A stretch of DNA of 46,967 nucleotides from contig JBGPNP010000001.1 in assembly GCA_041487575.1 (NCBI GenBank), positions 1 to 46,967 of the forward strand. The letters are read 5' to 3'. Each line of letters starts with the position of its first letter. Positions within the stretch are counted from its first letter, which is position 1. Positions 20,006 through 39,009 of this stretch are shown here, one piece after another. Under the pieces are notes generated by a model that was given only the letters and a program-made list of their open reading frames with translations, did not search any database and was not told the origin of the DNA. The translations under genes were made by a program, and so were the position numbers. The DNA comes from Gaiellaceae bacterium. Lineage in GTDB: Bacteria > Actinomycetota > Thermoleophilia > Gaiellales > Gaiellaceae.

Positions 20006-20144
20006 AGCGCCATTGAAGCATAACGGAAGTAATTAGTCAATAACAACTGGACGCCATTTCTGCCGGCATGGACTCCGCTTTCGGGGGATGGTGCGCATGT
20101 CCCTTCTCGCCGATTGTCAGACAGGAGCCGCAGAAGGACGCCGC

Positions 20145-21632
20145 ATGCCGCCGCAGACCAAGGAATCCACAGAAACCGAGAAGGGGTTCGGCACAGGCCT
20201 GCGCGCACAACTCGAGCGCCGGCGCGAGCCGGACGCCTCGAAGCGCGCCGCCGAGCCGAAGTTCGAGGACGCGCTCGCCGCTGCCAAGGCGCTCGTCGAG
20301 GCCGTCCCCGAGCCGAGCACGAACTGGAACGGCAACGGGAACGGGGCCGAAGTCGACGTCGAGGCTGTCCGCGCCGAGCTGGCCGCATCCCTCGCCCGAG
20401 AGCACGACCTTCGCTCAGCGCTCGCCGGCCAGGTCGAGACGCGCGAGCGAGAGCTGACCCTCGAGGGGGAGTTCTCCGACCGGGTCGCTGAGCTCGACGC
20501 TCGCGCAGCGCGCCTCGCTACCGTCGAGACGGAGCTCGAGGAACGCGAGCGCCGGCTGGCCGAGCAGCTCGCAGCGCTCAAGGAGCAGCAGAAGTCGCTT
20601 GGGGAGGCGGAGTCGAAGGTCGTGCGTGCCGAGGCGCTCGCGGCCAGGCACGACGAGCAGATCCAGGCCAAGATCCAGGAGCTCAAGAACGCCGACCGCG
20701 AGCGCGCCAAGGCCGCCCAGGAGCTGACCAAGCAGGCAGCGGCGCTCAACGCCCGCGACGCGAAGCTGGCGAGAGCAGAGGCGGCGCTCACGACGAAGAC
20801 GAAGGAGCTCGACGCCCGAGCCCAGGCCCGGGAGCGGGCGCTCGACGAGCGCGACACGCCCCTCCGCGAGCGCGAGCGCGAGCTCTTCAGGCTCGAGCAG
20901 AAGCTCGGCGAGCGGGAACGCGAGCTTGCGCAGCGCGACGCGCGTATGACCGCCCGCGACGAGTCGCTGGACGCGCGCGAGCGCACTCTTGACGAGCGCG
21001 AGGAGCGCCTGCGAGCGGACGCGGACAAGCTCGAGACCGAGCTCGCAGGCAAGGACAAGGGGGGCCGCGAGACGGTCGTCCGCGAGGCAGAGCTCGACGC
21101 GCGCGAGCTGGACCTCGCCGCGCGAGAGGCCGAAGTGCATCGCCGCGAGGCCGCAATCGCCCGAGCCCAGACGGACACGACCCCGGCCCGCGACTTCACC
21201 GAGCTCGAGGCGCGGTTCGCCGTGCGAGAGCGCGAGCTGGCCGGGCGAGAGCGCGAGCTCACCGAGCGGGAACGCCAGCTGGCCGAGCGCGACTCGGAGC
21301 TCGCGAACGTCGAGACGCTCACCGGTTCGCAGAAGGAGCGGCTCGAGCGCCGTGACAAGCGCGCCGCCGCGCTCGAGGAGGAGTTGAGCGAGCGCCTCGC
21401 CGATCTCGACGGGCGCGAGGCGGCGATCGAGGCGCGGGAAGCGGCGAACGAGGCCGACGTCGAGATCAGGCTCGACAAGCTCGAGCGCAAAGAGGCGGCC
21501 CTCGCGAAGCTCGAGGAGCGCCTGAAGCAGAAGGAAGCGGAGCTAGCCCGCTACGTCGCGCAGGTCCAGGGAGCCCTGAACCGGCGCGAGGACGAGTGGT
21601 GGAAGAAAGTCACGGGCGACCCGGTCGCCTAG
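20145..21632 (+). CDS. long coiled-coil protein rich in E/R/A/L
   Basis: ATG preceded by GAAGGA. About 400 aa of near-continuous heptad-like sequence with reiterated RERELxxRE/LDARE units. The track ORF starts earlier, at 20088. Confidence 0.75.
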   Translation: MPPQTKESTETEKGFGTGLRAQLERRREPDASKRAAEPKFEDALAAAKALVEAVPEPSTNWNGNGNGAEVDVEAVRAELAASLAREHDLRSALAGQVETRERELTLEGEFSDRVAELDARAARLATVETELEERERRLAEQLAALKEQQKSLGEAESKVVRAEALAARHDEQIQAKIQELKNADRERAKAAQELTKQAAALNARDAKLARAEAALTTKTKELDARAQARERALDERDTPLRERERELFRLEQKLGERERELAQRDARMTARDESLDARERTLDEREERLRADADKLETELAGKDKGGRETVVREAELDARELDLAAREAEVHRREAAIARAQTDTTPARDFTELEARFAVRERELAGRERELTERERQLAERDSELANVETLTGSQKERLERRDKRAAALEEELSERLADLDGREAAIEAREAANEADVEIRLDKLERKEAALAKLEERLKQKEAELARYVAQVQGALNRREDEWWKKVTGDPVA

Positions 21633-21815: not shown

Positions 21816-23243
21816 TCAAGCGACTCGCGCGTAGAGCACGGCGTGGGCATCGCGCGCGACCTCTCGGAAGCCGGGTGTTGTCGTCAGCCGCCGCTGCGCC
21901 GGGCTCCCCACGGTCACGAGCACCGCTCGGGGGGCGCGATCGAGTGCCCGCTCTCCCGAGAGCACACCTTCTAGCCAGTCGAGGTAGAGGCGCTGATCCG
22001 GCCCCGCGAAAGCGTCGATCGGGTTCGCGATCCAGACCCGGGCGCCGGCCGCGGCGAGCTGCTCGGCGGGGAGTGCGTCGGCGAGGATCGGTGTCCCGGC
22101 CGCGAGCGCCGCCGAGCGGGCCAGCAAGGCCGTGCTTGCGCCAGCCTGCGCCGGCTCGCGCACGAGCCCGAGAACGAGGAGGAGCGCCACGCTCGCCGAT
22201 CCTGCCAGCACGGCAACGCGTGGTAGCCGCATGGATCTGGCGGGAAGCGGTAGCCCACGCGCCGCCGGCCCGGCGGCGAAGAGCGCGAGCCAGACACCGT
22301 TTCGCCCGGCCTGCGCCGTGAGGAGAGCCAGCCCCGCCAGGCCAGCGAGCTCCCACATGGCCGGACGCGCCCTCAGCGCAAGCGCCACGAGGCCGAGGGC
22401 CGAGACGACAAACGCCACGTCGAAGAGCGATCGAACCGAGAGTGGCGCCCAGAGGCCGGCGCCGCGGCGGGCGGCCTCGTTCGAGAGCACCCCGATGTAG
22501 TAGTCGGGTGTCTGCCAGAGGCTCGGCGTCAGGCAGAGCGCGAGCGCCGAGGACCCCAGGACCGTGACCGCCTCGGCCGGCGAGCGACGGGCTCGGCCGA
22601 GCACGAGGTAGGCCCCCGCGAGCAGGAGCCCCAAAAGCGCCCCGCCGTGGAGGTTCGACCAGAGCGCCAGCAGCGGCACGAGCAGCCAGATCCGCCGCGA
22701 CGGCGCCCGCGCCTCCGACCGGAGCAGGACGACGAGCGCCGGGAAGAGCGCGAGCGAAAAGAGCTGGGCCCGCACGACGACGAAGGCCTGCAGGCAGGCA
22801 ATCACGACGATCAGGAGCACAAGGGCCCGCGCAAGTTCCGGGGCGCCCGCGCGGCGCATGTCGAGCGCCAGAAGCCCGAGCGCGCACGCGACCGCGAGCA
22901 CCTGCGCCAGCACGAGCCCGCGGTCGCCGGGTCCGGCCGCGAGGCCGTGGAAGACAACCTCTCCGAGCACGGGGACGTTCTGCCACCCGTCCGAGACCGC
23001 AGTTGCGAATGGCACCCCGTCCGGGATCCGACCTGTGCGAACGATCGCGCCGCCGAGCGCGACGAGCCAGCGCGCGTCCGCTCCCACCGTCGCCATGAGC
23101 GCGCACGCGGCCGTCGCAAACGCGACCGTGAGCCACGTGACGCACGCGCTCGCGAGACGACCTTGCTTGGCATCCTCCCGAGCGAAGCGAAGGGACGAGC
23201 CCCCGCCGGGGACAATGCGGAGCATTTTCCCCGGTTTACTCAC
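21816..23243 (-). CDS. polytopic integral membrane protein (10 or more predicted TM helices) with a soluble C-terminal domain; family not recognised, possibly GT-C-like
   Basis: 475-aa ORF. The GTG start overlaps the TGA of the upstream gene (GTGA). Contains many hydrophobic helices. The first 24 codons coincide with a repeated element. Confidence 0.7.
   Translation of the reverse strand: MSKPGKMLRIVPGGGSSLRFAREDAKQGRLASACVTWLTVAFATAACALMATVGADARWLVALGGAIVRTGRIPDGVPFATAVSDGWQNVPVLGEVVFHGLAAGPGDRGLVLAQVLAVACALGLLALDMRRAGAPELARALVLLIVVIACLQAFVVVRAQLFSLALFPALVVLLRSEARAPSRRIWLLVPLLALWSNLHGGALLGLLLAGAYLVLGRARRSPAEAVTVLGSSALALCLTPSLWQTPDYYIGVLSNEAARRGAGLWAPLSVRSLFDVAFVVSALGLVALALRARPAMWELAGLAGLALLTAQAGRNGVWLALFAAGPAARGLPLPARSMRLPRVAVLAGSASVALLLVLGLVREPAQAGASTALLARSAALAAGTPILADALPAEQLAAAGARVWIANPIDAFAGPDQRLYLDWLEGVLSGERALDRAPRAVLVTVGSPAQRRLTTTPGFREVARDAHAVLYARVA
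23171..23243 (-). repeat. copy 1 of the stop-codon-anchored hairpin plus 26-nt box element
   Basis: GTGAGTAAA, then hairpin CCGGGGAAAATGC-TCC-GCATTGTCCCCGG (one mismatch), then GTCCCTTCGCTTCGCTCGGGAGGATG. That box is identical to 38961..38986. Confidence 0.8.
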
Positions 23244-24695: not shown

Positions 24696-26564
24696 CTAAC
24701 CCTTGAAGGAGACGATTCGCTTGAGGATGAAGGAGCCGAACGCCATCATCCCCAGGCCCAGGAAGATGAGCTTGTGGCCGGTCGAGCTCTGGTAGAGGGG
24801 CTGCATGTACTCCGAGTTCACGAGCGTCACGAGGAGCGCGATGAAGAACGGCAGCGCGATGAGGACGTAGGCCGAGGCCCGCCCCATCGCCGTCAAGCCC
24901 TTGATCTTCCGCGCGAACTGCTGGCGGTTGCGCACGGTCTCGGCGACCATGTCGAAGAGCCCGGCGAGGCTGCCGCCCACGGTGCGCTGGATGTTCACCG
25001 CGCTGATGACGAACTCGAGGTTGCTCGAGCCGATCCGCTCGGCCATATCCGAAAGGGCCTCCTCCATCCCCCGCCCGAGCTGCGTCTCGGTGAGGACCCG
25101 CTTGAACTCCTTCGCGGCCGGGTCGACGCCCTCGTCCACCACCGTCTGAATCCCCTGCCGGAAGGAGTGGCCGGCCTTGAGGGACGCCGCCATCGTCACG
25201 AGAAGGTCGGGGAGCTGGTTCTCGAAGGCCTTGAGCCGCCGGCGCGCCTTGAAGGAGGCGAAGCCGTACGGGAGCCAGGCCCCGCCGATCATCGCGGCGA
25301 GAATCGCGACGCTCGACACCCCGGCGACCGCCGCGGCGAAGCCGAAGAAGAGGCCGGCGCCGGCGATGATGTAGACGAACTCGACCGTCCGCAGCGGCAG
25401 ATCGGCGCGCGCAAGCCGCTGCTCGAGCCGGAGCCAGAAGCGCTTGCGCCCGAGGGCGCGCTCCGTGGCATGGAAGAGCGCAGCCGCCGCGGCGAGGCGC
25501 TGGCGGTCCGCCCGCCGGCGCGACTGCCGCCGCTTCTCGCCGACGTGCGGCTGGATCCGCGCACGCACCCAGGAGCCCTTCGGCCGGGTGAGCCCGAGCA
25601 GCGCGGCGACGAGCACGATCAGCCCGATCCCGAAAGCGAAGGCCTTCGGCCCCCACGACGTCTGGAAGAGCTGCTTCGGCAGGAGCTTCGACGGCCCAGG
25701 CCGCGAGACCGTGACCGAAGTTCCAGGCATCCGCGCGTCAGTCGTCGCGGACTCGCCGCCGGCCGTCGCCTCGAGATGGAGGAGCTCGCCGGGCCTGGCC
25801 GCGGTGACGTACTCGAGCTGCCAGGTTCGCCGGAGCTCCGCCGCGAGCGAGTTGTAGACCGAGCCGAGCGCCGCGCTCGAGGCGGCGCCGAAATAGCGTC
25901 CGCCGGTCGCCTCGGCGATCTGCCGGAGCGGCTCAGGCGAGAACTGGGGACCCTCGATCGCGATCGGGTAGACGGCGACGCCGGCCTGCCGGGCCGCCGC
26001 GACCGCGTCCTCGAGCGTGGCCTTGCTCGAGACGTCACGGCCGTCGGTGAGAACGATGAGCACCCGGCCTGGAAGCAGCTCGGACGCAAGCGCGTGCGCC
26101 GCGAGGACGACGGCGTCGTAGAGCGCCGTCCCGGGCATGTCGCCGATGGCGAGCGTCCGCAGGGCGGTGTCGGCGTCGATCGTCGACGTCGAGAAGCCGG
26201 TGAGCTGCTCGGCGGCACTCCCGAACGTCACGACGGCGATGCGGTCGGCGGAAGGCTTCGCCTGGAGAAACGCCCGCGCCGCAGATGTCGCGTCCGCGAG
26301 CGCCTTCCCTTGCATCGATCGCGAGCTGTCAACGGCGAGCACGACGCTCGTGAAGCGCGCGAGGTTCTGCGCCGAGAAGCCCGCCACCGGCTGCCCGTTC
26401 TCGGTTAGCTCCGGCGGCGGCGCGGAGATGGTAGGCGCCACGACCAGCGCGTGGACGACCGGGTAGCCGGCCACGTCGACACCCCGGATCTCGACGCCGG
26501 CGCTGGCCGCCGGGACGGCGGCTAGCGCCCAGATAGTGAGCAGGATGCGCAGCATCCTGCTCAC
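24696..26564 (-). CDS. tadB: fusion protein: signal peptide plus extracytoplasmic vWA domain plus TadB-like T2SS F-domain platform protein
   Basis: vWA MIDAS motif VVLAVDSSRSMQG and LTDGRD. C-terminal half has LPDLLVTMAASLKAGHSFRQGI (T2SSF). The GTG start overlaps the tadA stop (GTGA). Confidence 0.85.
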   Translation of the reverse strand: MSRMLRILLTIWALAAVPAASAGVEIRGVDVAGYPVVHALVVAPTISAPPPELTENGQPVAGFSAQNLARFTSVVLAVDSSRSMQGKALADATSAARAFLQAKPSADRIAVVTFGSAAEQLTGFSTSTIDADTALRTLAIGDMPGTALYDAVVLAAHALASELLPGRVLIVLTDGRDVSSKATLEDAVAAARQAGVAVYPIAIEGPQFSPEPLRQIAEATGGRYFGAASSAALGSVYNSLAAELRRTWQLEYVTAARPGELLHLEATAGGESATTDARMPGTSVTVSRPGPSKLLPKQLFQTSWGPKAFAFGIGLIVLVAALLGLTRPKGSWVRARIQPHVGEKRRQSRRRADRQRLAAAAALFHATERALGRKRFWLRLEQRLARADLPLRTVEFVYIIAGAGLFFGFAAAVAGVSSVAILAAMIGGAWLPYGFASFKARRRLKAFENQLPDLLVTMAASLKAGHSFRQGIQTVVDEGVDPAAKEFKRVLTETQLGRGMEEALSDMAERIGSSNLEFVISAVNIQRTVGGSLAGLFDMVAETVRNRQQFARKIKGLTAMGRASAYVLIALPFFIALLVTLVNSEYMQPLYQSSTGHKLIFLGLGMMAFGSFILKRIVSFKG

Positions 26565-31355: not shown

Positions 31356-31434
31356 TTCCTCTGTCCTTCTGGTGGAGGGGGGCGGACCCTTCTTGCGACT
31401 TGAAGGGCCCGCCCACGCCATGTCTCTGTGCTTC

Positions 31435-31593
31435 CTAGAGCTTCCCGACGACGTTGGTGATCGCGCCGCTGATTCCGCCGGAAAGGGCGGTCAGGGCGAG
31501 CACGACACCGAGCGTGATGACGGCGAGAACGACGCCGTACTCCGCCATCGTCTGGCCTTCCTCGCGCTTGAAGAATGCAAAGAGCTTCGTCAC
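31435..31593 (-). CDS. flp: Flp family type IVb prepilin
   Basis: Hand translation gives (V)TKLFAFFKREEGQTMAEYGVVLAVITLGVVLALTALSGGISGAITNVVGKL. GTG start 8 nt after GGAGG. G/XXXXEY motif present. Confidence 0.9.
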   Translation of the reverse strand: MTKLFAFFKREEGQTMAEYGVVLAVITLGVVLALTALSGGISGAITNVVGKL

Positions 31594-31618
31594 CTTGTTC
31601 ACCTCCTTCTTATGGTTC

Positions 31619-31777
31619 CTAGAGACTCCCGACGACGGTGTTGATCGCGCCGCTGATGCCGCCGGAAAGAGCGGTCAGCGCGACCACGACGCCGAGCGTG
31701 ATGATGGCGAGAACGACGCCGTACTCCGCCATCGTCTGGCCCTCTTCGCGCCTGAAGAGCGTAAAGAGCTTCGTCAC
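31619..31777 (-). CDS. flp: Flp family type IVb prepilin (tandem paralog)
   Basis: C-terminal 52 codons of track ORF 31619..31933: (V)TKLFTLFRREEGQTMAEYGVVLAIITLGVVVALTALSGGISGAINTVVGSL. Same GGAGGTGAACAA-GTG start context as its paralog. Confidence 0.9.
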   Translation of the reverse strand: MTKLFTLFRREEGQTMAEYGVVLAIITLGVVVALTALSGGISGAINTVVGSL

Positions 31778-32012
31778 GTTGTTCACCTCCCCCCATGAAC
31801 TGGAGCACACCGGCCACGCGCCGACGACTGGAAAGCGCTCAGGCTTGAGGGGCGAGCAATATGCACTGCGATCGAGCCAGTTGATTCGGCGAGCGAGTAC
31901 GCGGGTCACGTCGAGTCGATACCTCCAGAACACTCGGCGTGACCGCTCCGCCGTGGTGGCTCAATTGGGCGGATGATGTGCGAGGAGACGTCGGTCGGGA
32001 ATCCCCCAGCGT

Positions 32013-37699: not shown

Positions 37700-38881
37700 A
37701 TGGCCCGGCCCCTACGCGACGTCTACCTCGTCGACGGCGTGCGCACGCCTTTCGGCAGAGCCGGCCCCCAGGGGCTCTTCTGGCACACGCGCGCCGACGA
37801 TCTGGCGGCACGAACGATCCGGGAGCTCCTGGGCAGGAACCCGAGCCTCCCGCCCGAGCGGATCGACGACGTCGTCCTCGCCGCGACCGCTCAGGTCGGC
37901 GACACGGGCCTCACGCTCGGGCGCAACGCGGCGCTCCTCGCCGGGCTCCCGGTCACCGTACCCGGCTTCGCCGTCGACCGCATGTGCGCCGGGGCGCTCA
38001 CGGCGATCACGAGCGCCGCCGGTGAGATCGTCTGGGGCGCCGCCGAGGTCGTTGTCGCGGGCGGCGCCGAGCACATGGGCCGCCACCCGATGGCCGAAGA
38101 GGTGGACTTCAACCCCCGCTACGTTGCCGAGCGACTGGTCGACCCCTCGGCCGTGACGATGGGCGCGACGGCCGAGAACCTCCACGACCGCTTCCCGCAC
38201 CTGACGAGGGAGGCGGCCGACCGCTACGCCGTCGAGTCGCAGCGCCGCGCCACCCTGGCGTGGGAGAACGGGATCATGCGCGCGACCGTCTTTCCGCTCA
38301 CCGTCTGGAGCGCGAGCGGCTGGGTCCTCGCCGAGCGCGACGAGTTCCTTCGCCCCGACACGACGACCGAGGCGCTCGCGAAGCTGCACACCTCCTTTCG
38401 CCCCGGAGGCCGCGTTACCGCCGGCAACTCGGCCGGCCTCACCGACGGCGCTGCCGCCTGCCTGCTCGCCTCCGGCGAGGCCTGCGAGGAGCTCGGCCTC
38501 GAGCCGCGCCTTCGTCTCGCCGGCTTCGCCTACGCGGGCGTCGAGCCCGAGCTCATGGGCCTCGGGCCAGTGCCGGCGACGCGCAAGGCGCTCGCGCAGA
38601 CCGGCCTCACGCTCGACGACATCGGCCTCTTCGAGCTGAACGAGCCCTTCGCCGTCCAGGTGCTCTCCTGGTGCGACGAGCTCGGCGTCTCTCCCGACGA
38701 CCCGCGCCTGAACCCGAACGGGGGCGCCATCGCCTGCGGCCACCCACTGGCCGCGACCGGAGCGCGCCTGGCGACCCAGCTCGCCTGCGAGCTGGCCGAG
38801 CGCCCGGACGTCCGCTACGGCCTCACCGCCCTTTGCGTGGGCTTCGGCATGGGCGCCACCCTGGTGTGGGAGCGTCCTTGA
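37700..38881 (+). CDS. acetyl-CoA C-acyltransferase (thiolase)
   Basis: Internal ATG (MARPLRDVYLVDGVRTPFG) of track ORF 37547..38881. Contains DRMCAG (active-site Cys), NPNGGAIACGHPLAATG and LCVGFGMG. Confidence 0.92.
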   Translation: MARPLRDVYLVDGVRTPFGRAGPQGLFWHTRADDLAARTIRELLGRNPSLPPERIDDVVLAATAQVGDTGLTLGRNAALLAGLPVTVPGFAVDRMCAGALTAITSAAGEIVWGAAEVVVAGGAEHMGRHPMAEEVDFNPRYVAERLVDPSAVTMGATAENLHDRFPHLTREAADRYAVESQRRATLAWENGIMRATVFPLTVWSASGWVLAERDEFLRPDTTTEALAKLHTSFRPGGRVTAGNSAGLTDGAAACLLASGEACEELGLEPRLRLAGFAYAGVEPELMGLGPVPATRKALAQTGLTLDDIGLFELNEPFAVQVLSWCDELGVSPDDPRLNPNGGAIACGHPLAATGARLATQLACELAERPDVRYGLTALCVGFGMGATLVWERP

Positions 38882-38986
38882 GTAATCCGCGAAAAATGCT
38901 CCGCATTTTTCGCGGTGGATCTCCAGGAAAGACGCTGCGCGTCTTTCCTGGCAGAGGTTTGTCCCTTCGCTTCGCTCGGGAGGATG
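38878..38986 (+). repeat. copy 2 of the stop-codon-anchored element: two related perfect hairpins (38887..38915, 38924..38950) plus a 26-nt box (38961..38986)
   Basis: TTGAGTAAT, CCGCGAAAAATGC-TCC-GCATTTTTCGCGG, CAGGAAAGACGC-TGC-GCGTCTTTCCTG, then GTCCCTTCGCTTCGCTCGGGAGGATG. Confidence 0.85.
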
Positions 38987-39009
38987 TTCCCCGGCGGGCC
39001 GGCCGATGA
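38878..39009 (+). other. candidate 43-codon micro-ORF spanning the element (MSNPRKMLRIFRGGSPGKTLRVFPGRGLSLRFAREDVPRRAGR)
   Basis: The TTG overlaps the thiolase TGA (TTGA) and its TGA overlaps the fadB-like ATG (ATGA). GC3 is only about 53%, which is atypical for coding sequence in this genome. Confidence 0.3.

Follow-up and report, generated by a model that had tools for sequence, protein, structure and literature searches.

Repetitive extragenic palindromic (REP) elements form stem-loops, are co-transcribed and can stabilise the mRNA upstream of them; they occur in both orientations, typically as inverted pairs, and are served by a RAYT (REP-associated tyrosine, Y1) transposase. Here we describe a short repeat element in a 46,967-nt stretch of the genome of a Gaiellaceae bacterium (GCA_041487575.1, contig JBGPNP010000001.1, positions 1 to 46,967 of the forward strand; hereafter the window), one copy of which, at 23171-23243 on the minus strand, forms the 5′ end of a membrane-protein gene. 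Its host order, the Gaiellales, comprises abundant and almost uncultured soil Actinomycetota. The element consists of a hairpin (P1), a spacer and a box that holds a second, smaller hairpin (P2) and a Shine-Dalgarno (SD)-like sequence. It belongs to the known class of intercistronic repeat elements, while the family itself is well supported and without a match in Rfam 15 or in the literature searched. On balance, the sequence comparisons incline us to read it as a Gaiellales-specific intercistronic repeat that is co-transcribed with its neighbours and that has, in the window, probably been captured as the start of the membrane-protein gene, which would then be translated by way of re-initiation.

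Several aspects give the family wider relevance. One short structured cassette recurs at dozens of stop/start junctions, including those of ribosomal-protein, NADH-dehydrogenase and central-metabolism operons, and the operons still work. The element misleads gene callers, and the covariance model described below (R1) can be used to mask or annotate its sites. It also provides natural cases of a gene that has no start of its own and depends on a start in the repeat beside the upstream stop, in which re-initiation can be tested directly.

The closest analogues of the element are mycobacterial interspersed repetitive units (MIRUs) and REP elements together with REP doublets forming hairpins (REPINs); by the features compared, it is a member of none of the systems considered here. 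MIRUs lie between the genes of operons, in the orientation of those genes, and carry a small open reading frame (ORF) coupled to the downstream gene by a 4-nt overlap, an arrangement thought to make insertion harmless (PMC12548453). Like MIRUs, the element is a short actinobacterial repeat that lies between operon genes in the same orientation as its flanks. In a sister copy within the window (copy B) and about 15 other junction clusters a bridging ORF overlaps the flanking stop and start, a marginal enrichment (p = 0.06). The copy at the membrane-protein gene is a fusion rather than a bridging ORF, and only about one-third of clusters bridge. The host order also differs, there are no arrays of variable-number tandem repeats (no more than one hairpin doubled, in copy B and at locus L064), and the element has two covarying hairpins, an SD-bearing box and conservation at orthologous junctions across species, a contrast that concerns features and not sequence.

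REP elements, bacterial interspersed mosaic elements (BIMEs) and REPINs are described as short, abundant extragenic palindromes with long vertical inheritance (PMC3116915, PMC3479197). P1 is likewise a 29-nt palindrome present in many extragenic copies (at least 66 distinct ones), but these are single units, about 85-90% of them in sense, that abut a stop codon and carry an SD sequence. Rickettsia palindromic elements (RPEs) are palindromic repeats fused in frame into protein-coding genes (PMC10969869), and the capture of the element as a membrane-protein N-terminus recalls them. RPEs, however, are about 150 bp long, insert within genes and encode a conserved peptide, whereas the present element is normally intergenic, is captured by loss of a start codon and encodes no conserved peptide.

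Two further comparisons concern function. At the phage f1 gene VII/IX, MS2 coat/lysis and Escherichia coli rpmI-rplT junctions, a hairpin is opened by the terminating ribosome, on which downstream initiation depends (PMC12548453). A hairpin-only relative of the element on the tadA/vWA-tadB GTGA overlap of the window fits this scheme directly; the known cases are each confined to a single locus, whereas the present element brings a single sequence family to dozens of junctions. [quoted passage not shown] Those elements have terminal inverted repeats, target-site duplications and often promoters, none of which was found here.

The element at the membrane-protein gene

The copy at 23171-23243 is a full member of the family, 73 bases long, composed of GTGA, a 13-bp P1, a spacer of 9 nt and, last, the box of 26 nt. 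Its parts, all read on the minus strand, are as follows.

21816-23243, minus: membrane-protein ORF, 475 aa from GTG or 469 aa from ATG 23225; the first 25-30 or so codons are element sequence
23240-23243, minus: GTGA, in which the stop TGA (23242-23240) of the upstream RTX-repeat gene overlaps the candidate start GTG (23243-23241) of the membrane-protein ORF
23206-23234, minus: hairpin P1, CCGGGGAAAATGC (23234-23222)-TCC-GCATTGTCCCCGG (23218-23206), 13 pairs with one A.G mismatch
23223-23225, minus: ATG in the 5′ arm of P1, in frame with the membrane-protein ORF (codon 7) and the start of the public gene call
23197-23205, minus: G-rich spacer CGGGGGCTC between P1 and P2
23171-23196, minus: 26-nt box GTCCCTTCGCTTCGCTCGGGAGGATG, holding hairpin P2 and the SD-like 3′ strand GGGAGG

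Between the GTG and P1 stands AGTAAA, so that five nucleotides (GTAAA, 23239-23235) separate the TGA from the first base of P1 at 23234. P1 folds at -18.6 kcal/mol (z = -4.6), and in P2 the UCCC at 23195-23192 pairs with the GGGA at 23179-23176 around the loop UUCGCUUCGCUC (23191-23180), which contains an inner GC-UUC-GC mini-stem. The copy matches covariance model R1 over all of its positions (1-72 of 72) with 78.5 bits and E = 1.9e-17, a match that is partly by construction given that the copy is in the seed. It lies in sense between two minus-strand neighbours, and the upstream stop precedes P1 by 0-6 nt, as it does in the family. The upstream 128-aa RTX-repeat ORF matches Pfam HemolysinCabind. 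No terminator-like site was found on the element strand at either full copy in the window, P1 being followed by G-rich sequence and not by a U-tract, and no promoter was predicted at either copy.

A preliminary description of this stretch had recognised the box as a second, identical copy of one elsewhere in the window, had set the two hairpins apart by two compensatory exchanges and a mismatch, and had the element begin on the upstream stop codon and run on in frame into the membrane protein. All of this was borne out: the 26-nt box is identical to that at 38961-38986 on the plus strand; P1 differs from the hairpin at 38887-38915 by exactly two compensatory exchanges (C-G to G-C and A-T to G-C) and one A.G mismatch; GTG 23243-23241 overlaps TGA 23242-23240; and the frame from GTG 23243 continues into the 475-aa ORF at 21816-23243. 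A box pattern and a hairpin-core pattern each match both sites, with a chance expectation of 0.00 in 100 dinucleotide-preserving shuffles.

Related copies in the window

Two relatives of this copy were found in the window.

38878-39009, plus: sister copy B at a thiolase/fadB-like junction, with a TTGA overlap, hairpins at 38887-38915 and 38923-38951, the box at 38961-38986, a 19-nt tail and ATGA
26536-26564, minus: hairpin-only relative of P1, GTGAGCAGGATGC-TGC-GCATCCTGCTCAC, a perfect 13-bp stem on the tadA/vWA-tadB GTGA overlap

Copy B (80.5 bits against the covariance model; fold z of -4.5) carries two tandem hairpins instead of one, the second being of a GACGC/GCGTC subtype that also occurs in L064:776-847; the orthologous junction in L128 has a single hairpin only. 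A 43-codon ORF in copy B bridges the thiolase stop, through the TTGA overlap, to the fadB-like start, through the ATGA overlap. The fadB-like gene has no SD sequence within 10 nt of its ATG, which would fit a dependence on this bridging ORF.

The hairpin-only relative had been described beforehand as a weaker echo of the element at the start of vWA-tadB, and it proved real, its perfect 13-bp stem (26564-26536) lying on the GTGA overlap and within the first 10 codons of vWA-tadB. It is matched by the covariance model at 26573-26526 (23.4 bits, E = 3.6e-4) and folds with z = -5.3. Its orthologue in L012 (about 2219-2247) reads GTGACCAGGCTGC-TGC-GCAGCCTGGTCAC, and the four stem differences between the two make up two compensatory pairs, despite a change of the protein from SRMLRILLT to TRLLRSLVT; by a rough estimate, four random substitutions would yield two compensatory pairs with a probability below 0.001. 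The comparison shows selection for a P1-type hairpin, as a structure, exactly at the tadA/vWA-tadB stop/start junction. The ATG in the hairpin arm is CTG in L012, so the GTG on the overlap would be the start of vWA-tadB there.

A family of structured repeats

Outside the window, the element was sought in two scans. A species-level scan, in which each species was represented by one genome and the query was a 21-nt part of the box, returned 10 loci, eight of which belong to Gaiellales, Gaiellaceae or Actinomycetota metagenome-assembled genomes (MAGs) and share the layout of hairpin, spacer, box and next gene. A metagenome scan with 18 specified bases returned at least 120 loci, and among the matches listed about 55% have the hairpin-spacer-box layout. 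Together, Gaiellales genomes and metagenomes yielded at least 66 distinct copies, at 44 junction clusters among the matches listed; from 65 distinct copies we built an alignment (A2) and covariance model R1, both spanning P1, the spacer and the P2/box region. The search pattern fixed the box sequence, and conservation of the box is therefore partly a matter of ascertainment. The preliminary description had allowed that the similarity of the two copies might reflect a local duplication, which the size of the family excludes; the element is a family that extends well beyond the window.

The 47-kb window contains two complete copies plus a hairpin-only one, and about seven more, beyond those that seeded the loci, occur in some 450 kb of fetched Gaiellales sequence. 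As a rough extrapolation, this corresponds to tens of copies per Gaiellales genome. Subfamilies recur across genomes, among them the two-hairpin type of copy B and L064:776-847 and a longer type with the left end ATGAGCTAT and the right end GGAGGTTGAC..ATGAGC in L022, L023, L101, L114 and L122. At its gathering thresholds, Rfam 15 gave no match in the window, and at permissive thresholds the best matches by E-value stayed far below gathering (RsmW, 16.9 versus 52 bits; naRNA4, 22.3 versus 59.5). Full-text literature searches with the box sequences, with repeats of Gaiellales or Thermoleophilia, and with the GCGAAGC mini-hairpin together with REP gave no description of the element. We also considered viral contigs as carriers; a scan with the P1 core gave seven stretches in unrelated low-GC or other contexts, about the number estimated by chance for a 17-mer, and this candidate was set aside.

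The element of the family is about 72 nt long and consists of P1, a G/U-rich spacer of 11-13 nt and the P2 box. Across the 65 copies, 95% of P1 cells are paired and 11 of the 13 pairs have changed on both sides; none of 500 shuffles reached the observed values, and slid controls were 35-57% paired. The inner seven pairs (AAAAUGC/GCAUUUU), which hold the AUG, are conserved in sequence, whereas the outer pairs vary freely and covary; 29 of the 65 copies have an A.C mismatch at pair 16-35. Variable positions track helix pairing and not codon periodicity.

RNAalifold returned the same P1 helix and, within the box, the small hairpin P2, with a CCC/GGG stem around the loop N-UCGCUUCGCUC and its inner GC-UUC-GC stem; RNAfold on the membrane-gene copy adds a U-A pair to give UCCC/GGGA. 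In two copies that only the covariance model found, the P2 stem covaries and the loop is kept (AUCU/AGAU in L007:592-662 and UCGC/GCGA in L046:156-226), and this compensation implies that GGGAG is first of all the 3′ strand of P2. The loop UCGCUUCGCUC is invariant in the family, partly through ascertainment by the search pattern. The complement of the P2 loop and box core contains d(GCGAAGC), which is described as a very stable DNA mini-hairpin (PMC13037366).

As a separate observation, the box core CCCTCGCTTCGCTCGGGAG also occurs in several repeat families unrelated to this one, where it caps longer hairpins or forms inverted pairs (L017, L049, L058, L063, L074, L120 and L121; L035, L078, L092 and L104; L018, L097 and L117; L105, L095, L075 and L028). 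These belong to other, often lower-GC, organisms, including Terriglobales and Pirellulaceae MAGs in the species-level scan, and Rfam searches on 20 loci with such box-bearing repeats assigned no family.

Position at gene junctions

The preliminary description had called for a view of where copies lie relative to stop and start codons, and the census bears out a junction element, which recurs among the matches listed at 44 clusters of junctions between other genes. Coding frames, scored by GC3 minus GC2 (the GC contents of third and second codon positions) in this DNA of about 70% GC, place the upstream stop at -50 to -36 from the box in most copies, that is, 0-6 nt before P1 or within its 5′ arm, and the start of a sense downstream gene 2-35 nt past GGGAG. 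Of the 56 copies that could be scored, 48 have both flanks coding in sense. GGGAG(G) lies 2-10 nt from the downstream start, which is an SD distance, in roughly half of all copies, and the remaining copies have a second SD sequence. The downstream genes include those for S8, L18, NuoC, NuoE, NuoG, Mdh, UppS, Tgt, a class-III aminotransferase and a pyridoxal-phosphate (PLP) enzyme. From this arrangement we infer that the element is transcribed together with its co-directional neighbours.

Orthologous copies from different metagenomes are 84% identical in P1 and spacer, against 77-79% in the flanking coding DNA, and non-orthologous copies are 71% identical. The higher conservation of the orthologous copies relative to their flanks points to vertical inheritance, with the element kept by selection or by homogenisation. 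In the longer subfamily, L022, L023, L101, L114 and L122 share the ends of the element and differ in their downstream genes. About 23 nt past the box, the start of the next gene is ATG in L022 and L023, GTG in L114, CTG in L101 and ATT in L122, which suggests that non-canonical starts may be used or tolerated beside the element in L101 and L122.

These data bear on a different explanation, that the element is a selfish, non-autonomous mobile DNA repeat of the REP, MITE or MIRU kind, whose hairpins serve transposition or another DNA process and whose capture by the membrane-protein gene was accidental and without regulatory meaning. The stop-free reading, the internal SD sequence and the ATGA ends would then merely render insertions into operons harmless, as they do in MIRUs (PMC12548453). 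Many near-identical copies at unrelated junctions, subfamilies common to several genomes, the antisense copies, the stable d(GCGAAGC) mini-hairpin in the complement of the P2 loop, and direct repeats of 8-9 nt flanking the element in L002 (ATGCCTGA) and L023 (CGCATGAGC) are all in keeping with such a repeat. Against this, there is no overall signal of target-site duplication (p = 0.2), the ends of the element are not inverted repeats, the sense bias is strong, and copies are retained at orthologous junctions with flanks only about 78% identical, where the element is better conserved than its surroundings and its pairs change in a compensatory manner. An association of TGAG[CT] with both element ends had p = 0.05 and was driven by one subfamily. 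We regard a purely selfish origin of the observed pattern as possible, though rather less than probable.

Start of the membrane-protein gene

The membrane protein has more than 1400 homologues (E <= 1e-3), mostly from soil metagenomes, and matches no Pfam or NCBIfam family; only its closest relatives sit at the end of a tad pilus locus. Public gene calls for it (P0001-P0005) use four different start sites and translate the repeat in two frames, P0001 (469 aa) starting at ATG 23225. Ahead of the first transmembrane (TM) helix, the only canonical in-frame starts are the GTG at codon 1 and the ATG at codon 7 (23225). The next is M50, within a helix that is conserved in about 60 homologue N-termini compared, and the earlier statement that no other in-frame start precedes the helix therefore holds for any start beyond those two. 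Between the box and the helix there is likewise no CTG, ATT, ATC or ATA in frame. In the frame of the ORF, GC3 is 0.67 inside the element and about 0.8-0.9 directly past the box and beyond. With the element open in frame and no start past the box, the ORF must begin inside the element. The start of translation is most probably GTG 23243 or ATG 23225, to judge from the absence of alternatives.

The four closest fetchable homologues (L011, L012, L014 and L015) all have an RTX-like gene upstream and the element in between. In L012 and L015 (70% and 69% identity), GGGAG is followed by 4 nt, an ATG, five codons and the conserved helix WLT[IV]AF, which is presumably the ancestral, intergenic state with the element supplying the ribosome-binding site. 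The junction copy in L012 (5542-5626) has an extra 5′ half-hairpin CCGCGGAAAATGCTCC ahead of a complete P1, which indicates local duplication or slippage of the hairpin arms. The membrane-gene copy of the window departs from the family rule of a downstream start 2-35 nt past GGGAG, and so do L011 and L014. In L011 (66%) no canonical start follows the box, the ORF stays open as far back as an ATG overlapping the TGA of the upstream gene, and the element is read in another frame (GKCSAFS...PVASLGS, versus SLRFARE). L014 (84%, from a different metagenome) reads the box as LRFARE like the window, has no start after the box and differs from the window by 15 nt, which is a multiple of three, in the linker. 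Its P1-arm ATG is its only in-frame ATG and the only in-frame start that it shares with the window; P1 is decayed here, with three non-Watson-Crick positions, and the SD sequence reads GTGAGG.

The expectation that orthologues would share the extension holds in part: the element stands at the junction in all four, while the extension is present only in L011 and L014, and L012 and L015 start after the box. Homologues with no more than 61% identity are found in different gene contexts, have neither element nor extension and carry short N-termini of their own; lying elsewhere, they are uninformative as to an empty junction before insertion. We conclude that the N-terminal extension is a lineage-specific capture of an intergenic element and not a feature of the protein family, and that the start codon past the box was lost at least twice independently, in two frames.

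One may postulate instead that the start is mis-set or the gene damaged, with translation beginning at M50 or V53 or at a non-canonical codon, or with a 1-nt error in the contig hiding the ATG at GGGAGGATG (23173-23171). This ATG comes right behind the box, an arrangement found in several other copies too, and lies 38 nt, which is not a multiple of three, before the TGG codon of the TM helix; CTG and ATT starts also seem to be used at the L101 and L122 junctions. The ATG, however, is 0-1 nt from GGGAGG and too close for an SD interaction, M50 is inside the conserved helix, the box-to-helix segment combines a GC3 of 0.8-0.9 with the lack of in-frame CTG, ATT, ATC or ATA, and L014, an independent sequence with a linker differing by 15 nt, keeps the same frame through the box with no ATG after it. 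We find a mis-set start or damaged gene doubtful. Of the two options left by the preliminary description, that the element supplies the start region and that the gene start is mis-set, it is the former that fits better, given the missing canonical and near-cognate starts past the box, the GC3 profile and L014.

The preliminary description had also pointed to a shared peptide, MS.P.KMLRI...SLRFARED, and one could suppose that a conserved small peptide or leader, functional in its own right, is encoded by the element. The peptides of the two full copies in the window are indeed similar and share a frame, and copy B forms a closed ORF of 43 codons. Across the family, however, the frame in which the box is read can be any of the three, or the reading is interrupted; TTAGT and GGGTGA variants stop the ORF from the hairpin AUG after 8-10 codons, and many members have internal stops. 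The position of that AUG is a GTG in 10 copies and holds no start codon in three, L011 reads another peptide, L012 and L015 need not read the element at all, and variation follows helix pairing rather than codons. The peptide match is therefore a by-product of nucleotide conservation, and a functional peptide, which we hold to be very improbable, was rejected on the grounds of frames, stops and helix-driven variation.

A further account takes the element for an mRNA processing or stability module like REP/BIME or Correia elements, in which the spacer would be cleaved, P1 would protect the upstream 3′ end, and P2 with a bound 30S subunit would protect the 5′ end of the downstream cistron, so that neighbouring genes are set at different levels. 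Two stable hairpins around a G/U-rich single strand, and sites in long housekeeping operons (ribosomal proteins, nuo, pyruvate dehydrogenase), would suit such a module. Copies with GGGAG 15-35 nt from the start have a second SD sequence and do not need that of the box for initiation, and there are precedents in the effects that repeat elements exert through RNase III and RNase E (PMC10969869). Cleavage in the spacer is nevertheless incompatible with the membrane-protein genes of the window, L011 and L014, whose only starts lie 5′ of the spacer, and it leaves the hairpin-only copy on an overlapping junction unexplained. As a general account a processing module is unlikely, while for the ordinary copies it is plausible.

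Proposed mechanism

Under the explanation that we favour, an intercistronic repeat captured as a gene start, the element would have been ancestrally intergenic at the junction of the RTX gene and the membrane-protein gene, where it supplied the ribosome-binding site. In the lineage of the window the ATG past the box was lost, and, with the element open in frame, the membrane protein would have come to start inside it. A ribosome with the upstream UGA in its A site would already have melted most of P1, and this ribosome or its 30S subunit may re-initiate, without an SD sequence, on the adjacent GUG 23243 or on the AUG 23225 in the P1 arm. It would then read either a short ORF that ends on the next start, as in copy B and 15 clusters, or straight into the next gene, as in the window, L011 and L014. 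What the comparisons show is the family with its structure, its conservation and its bias in position and orientation, together with the lost downstream start. We infer the site of translation start, re-initiation itself and the roles of P1 and P2 from sequence features interpreted in the light of published models of termination-reinitiation and of coupling through RNA unfolding (PMC12548453).

Several observations weigh against this mechanism. A few intact copies run antisense to their neighbours (L020, L133 and L032/L038) or come after a divergent gene (L061 and L103), and such copies are not what a purely RNA-level role predicts. A mini-ORF from the hairpin AUG ends on the downstream start in 15 of 31 clusters (44 in all), a marginal enrichment (p = 0.06), and the frames that the hairpin AUG takes with respect to the downstream gene (21/13/10) do not differ significantly from random. 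In a library screen, structure directly after the stop correlated negatively with coupling efficiency (PMC12548453), and P1 could accordingly insulate rather than couple its neighbours. The invariance of the P2 loop is unexplained by the re-initiation model.

That last point leads to a more speculative possibility, to which we give little weight, that P1 and P2 serve for binding or sensing in a post-transcriptional system so far undescribed, by which Gaiellales would set how strongly neighbouring cistrons of their housekeeping operons are translated relative to each other. UCGCUUCGCUC, which is also present at the tips of unrelated repeat hairpins in other phyla, may then be what a widely conserved factor recognises, either a protein or the ribosome. 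Were this true, the repeat would not be junk DNA but a regulatory cassette open to repeated use.

Other features of the window

Two further repeat-bearing regions were observed. Convergent with the membrane-protein gene, a 514-aa ORF on the plus strand (20088-21632) is rich in E, R, A and L and contains 21-nt periodic DNA repeats (family D1). It has a borderline match to RNase_Y_N (32.4 bits), and its product is probably a coiled-coil protein. At 31429-31790 on the plus strand, two tandem copies of a 178-nt unit are 90% identical (family D2).

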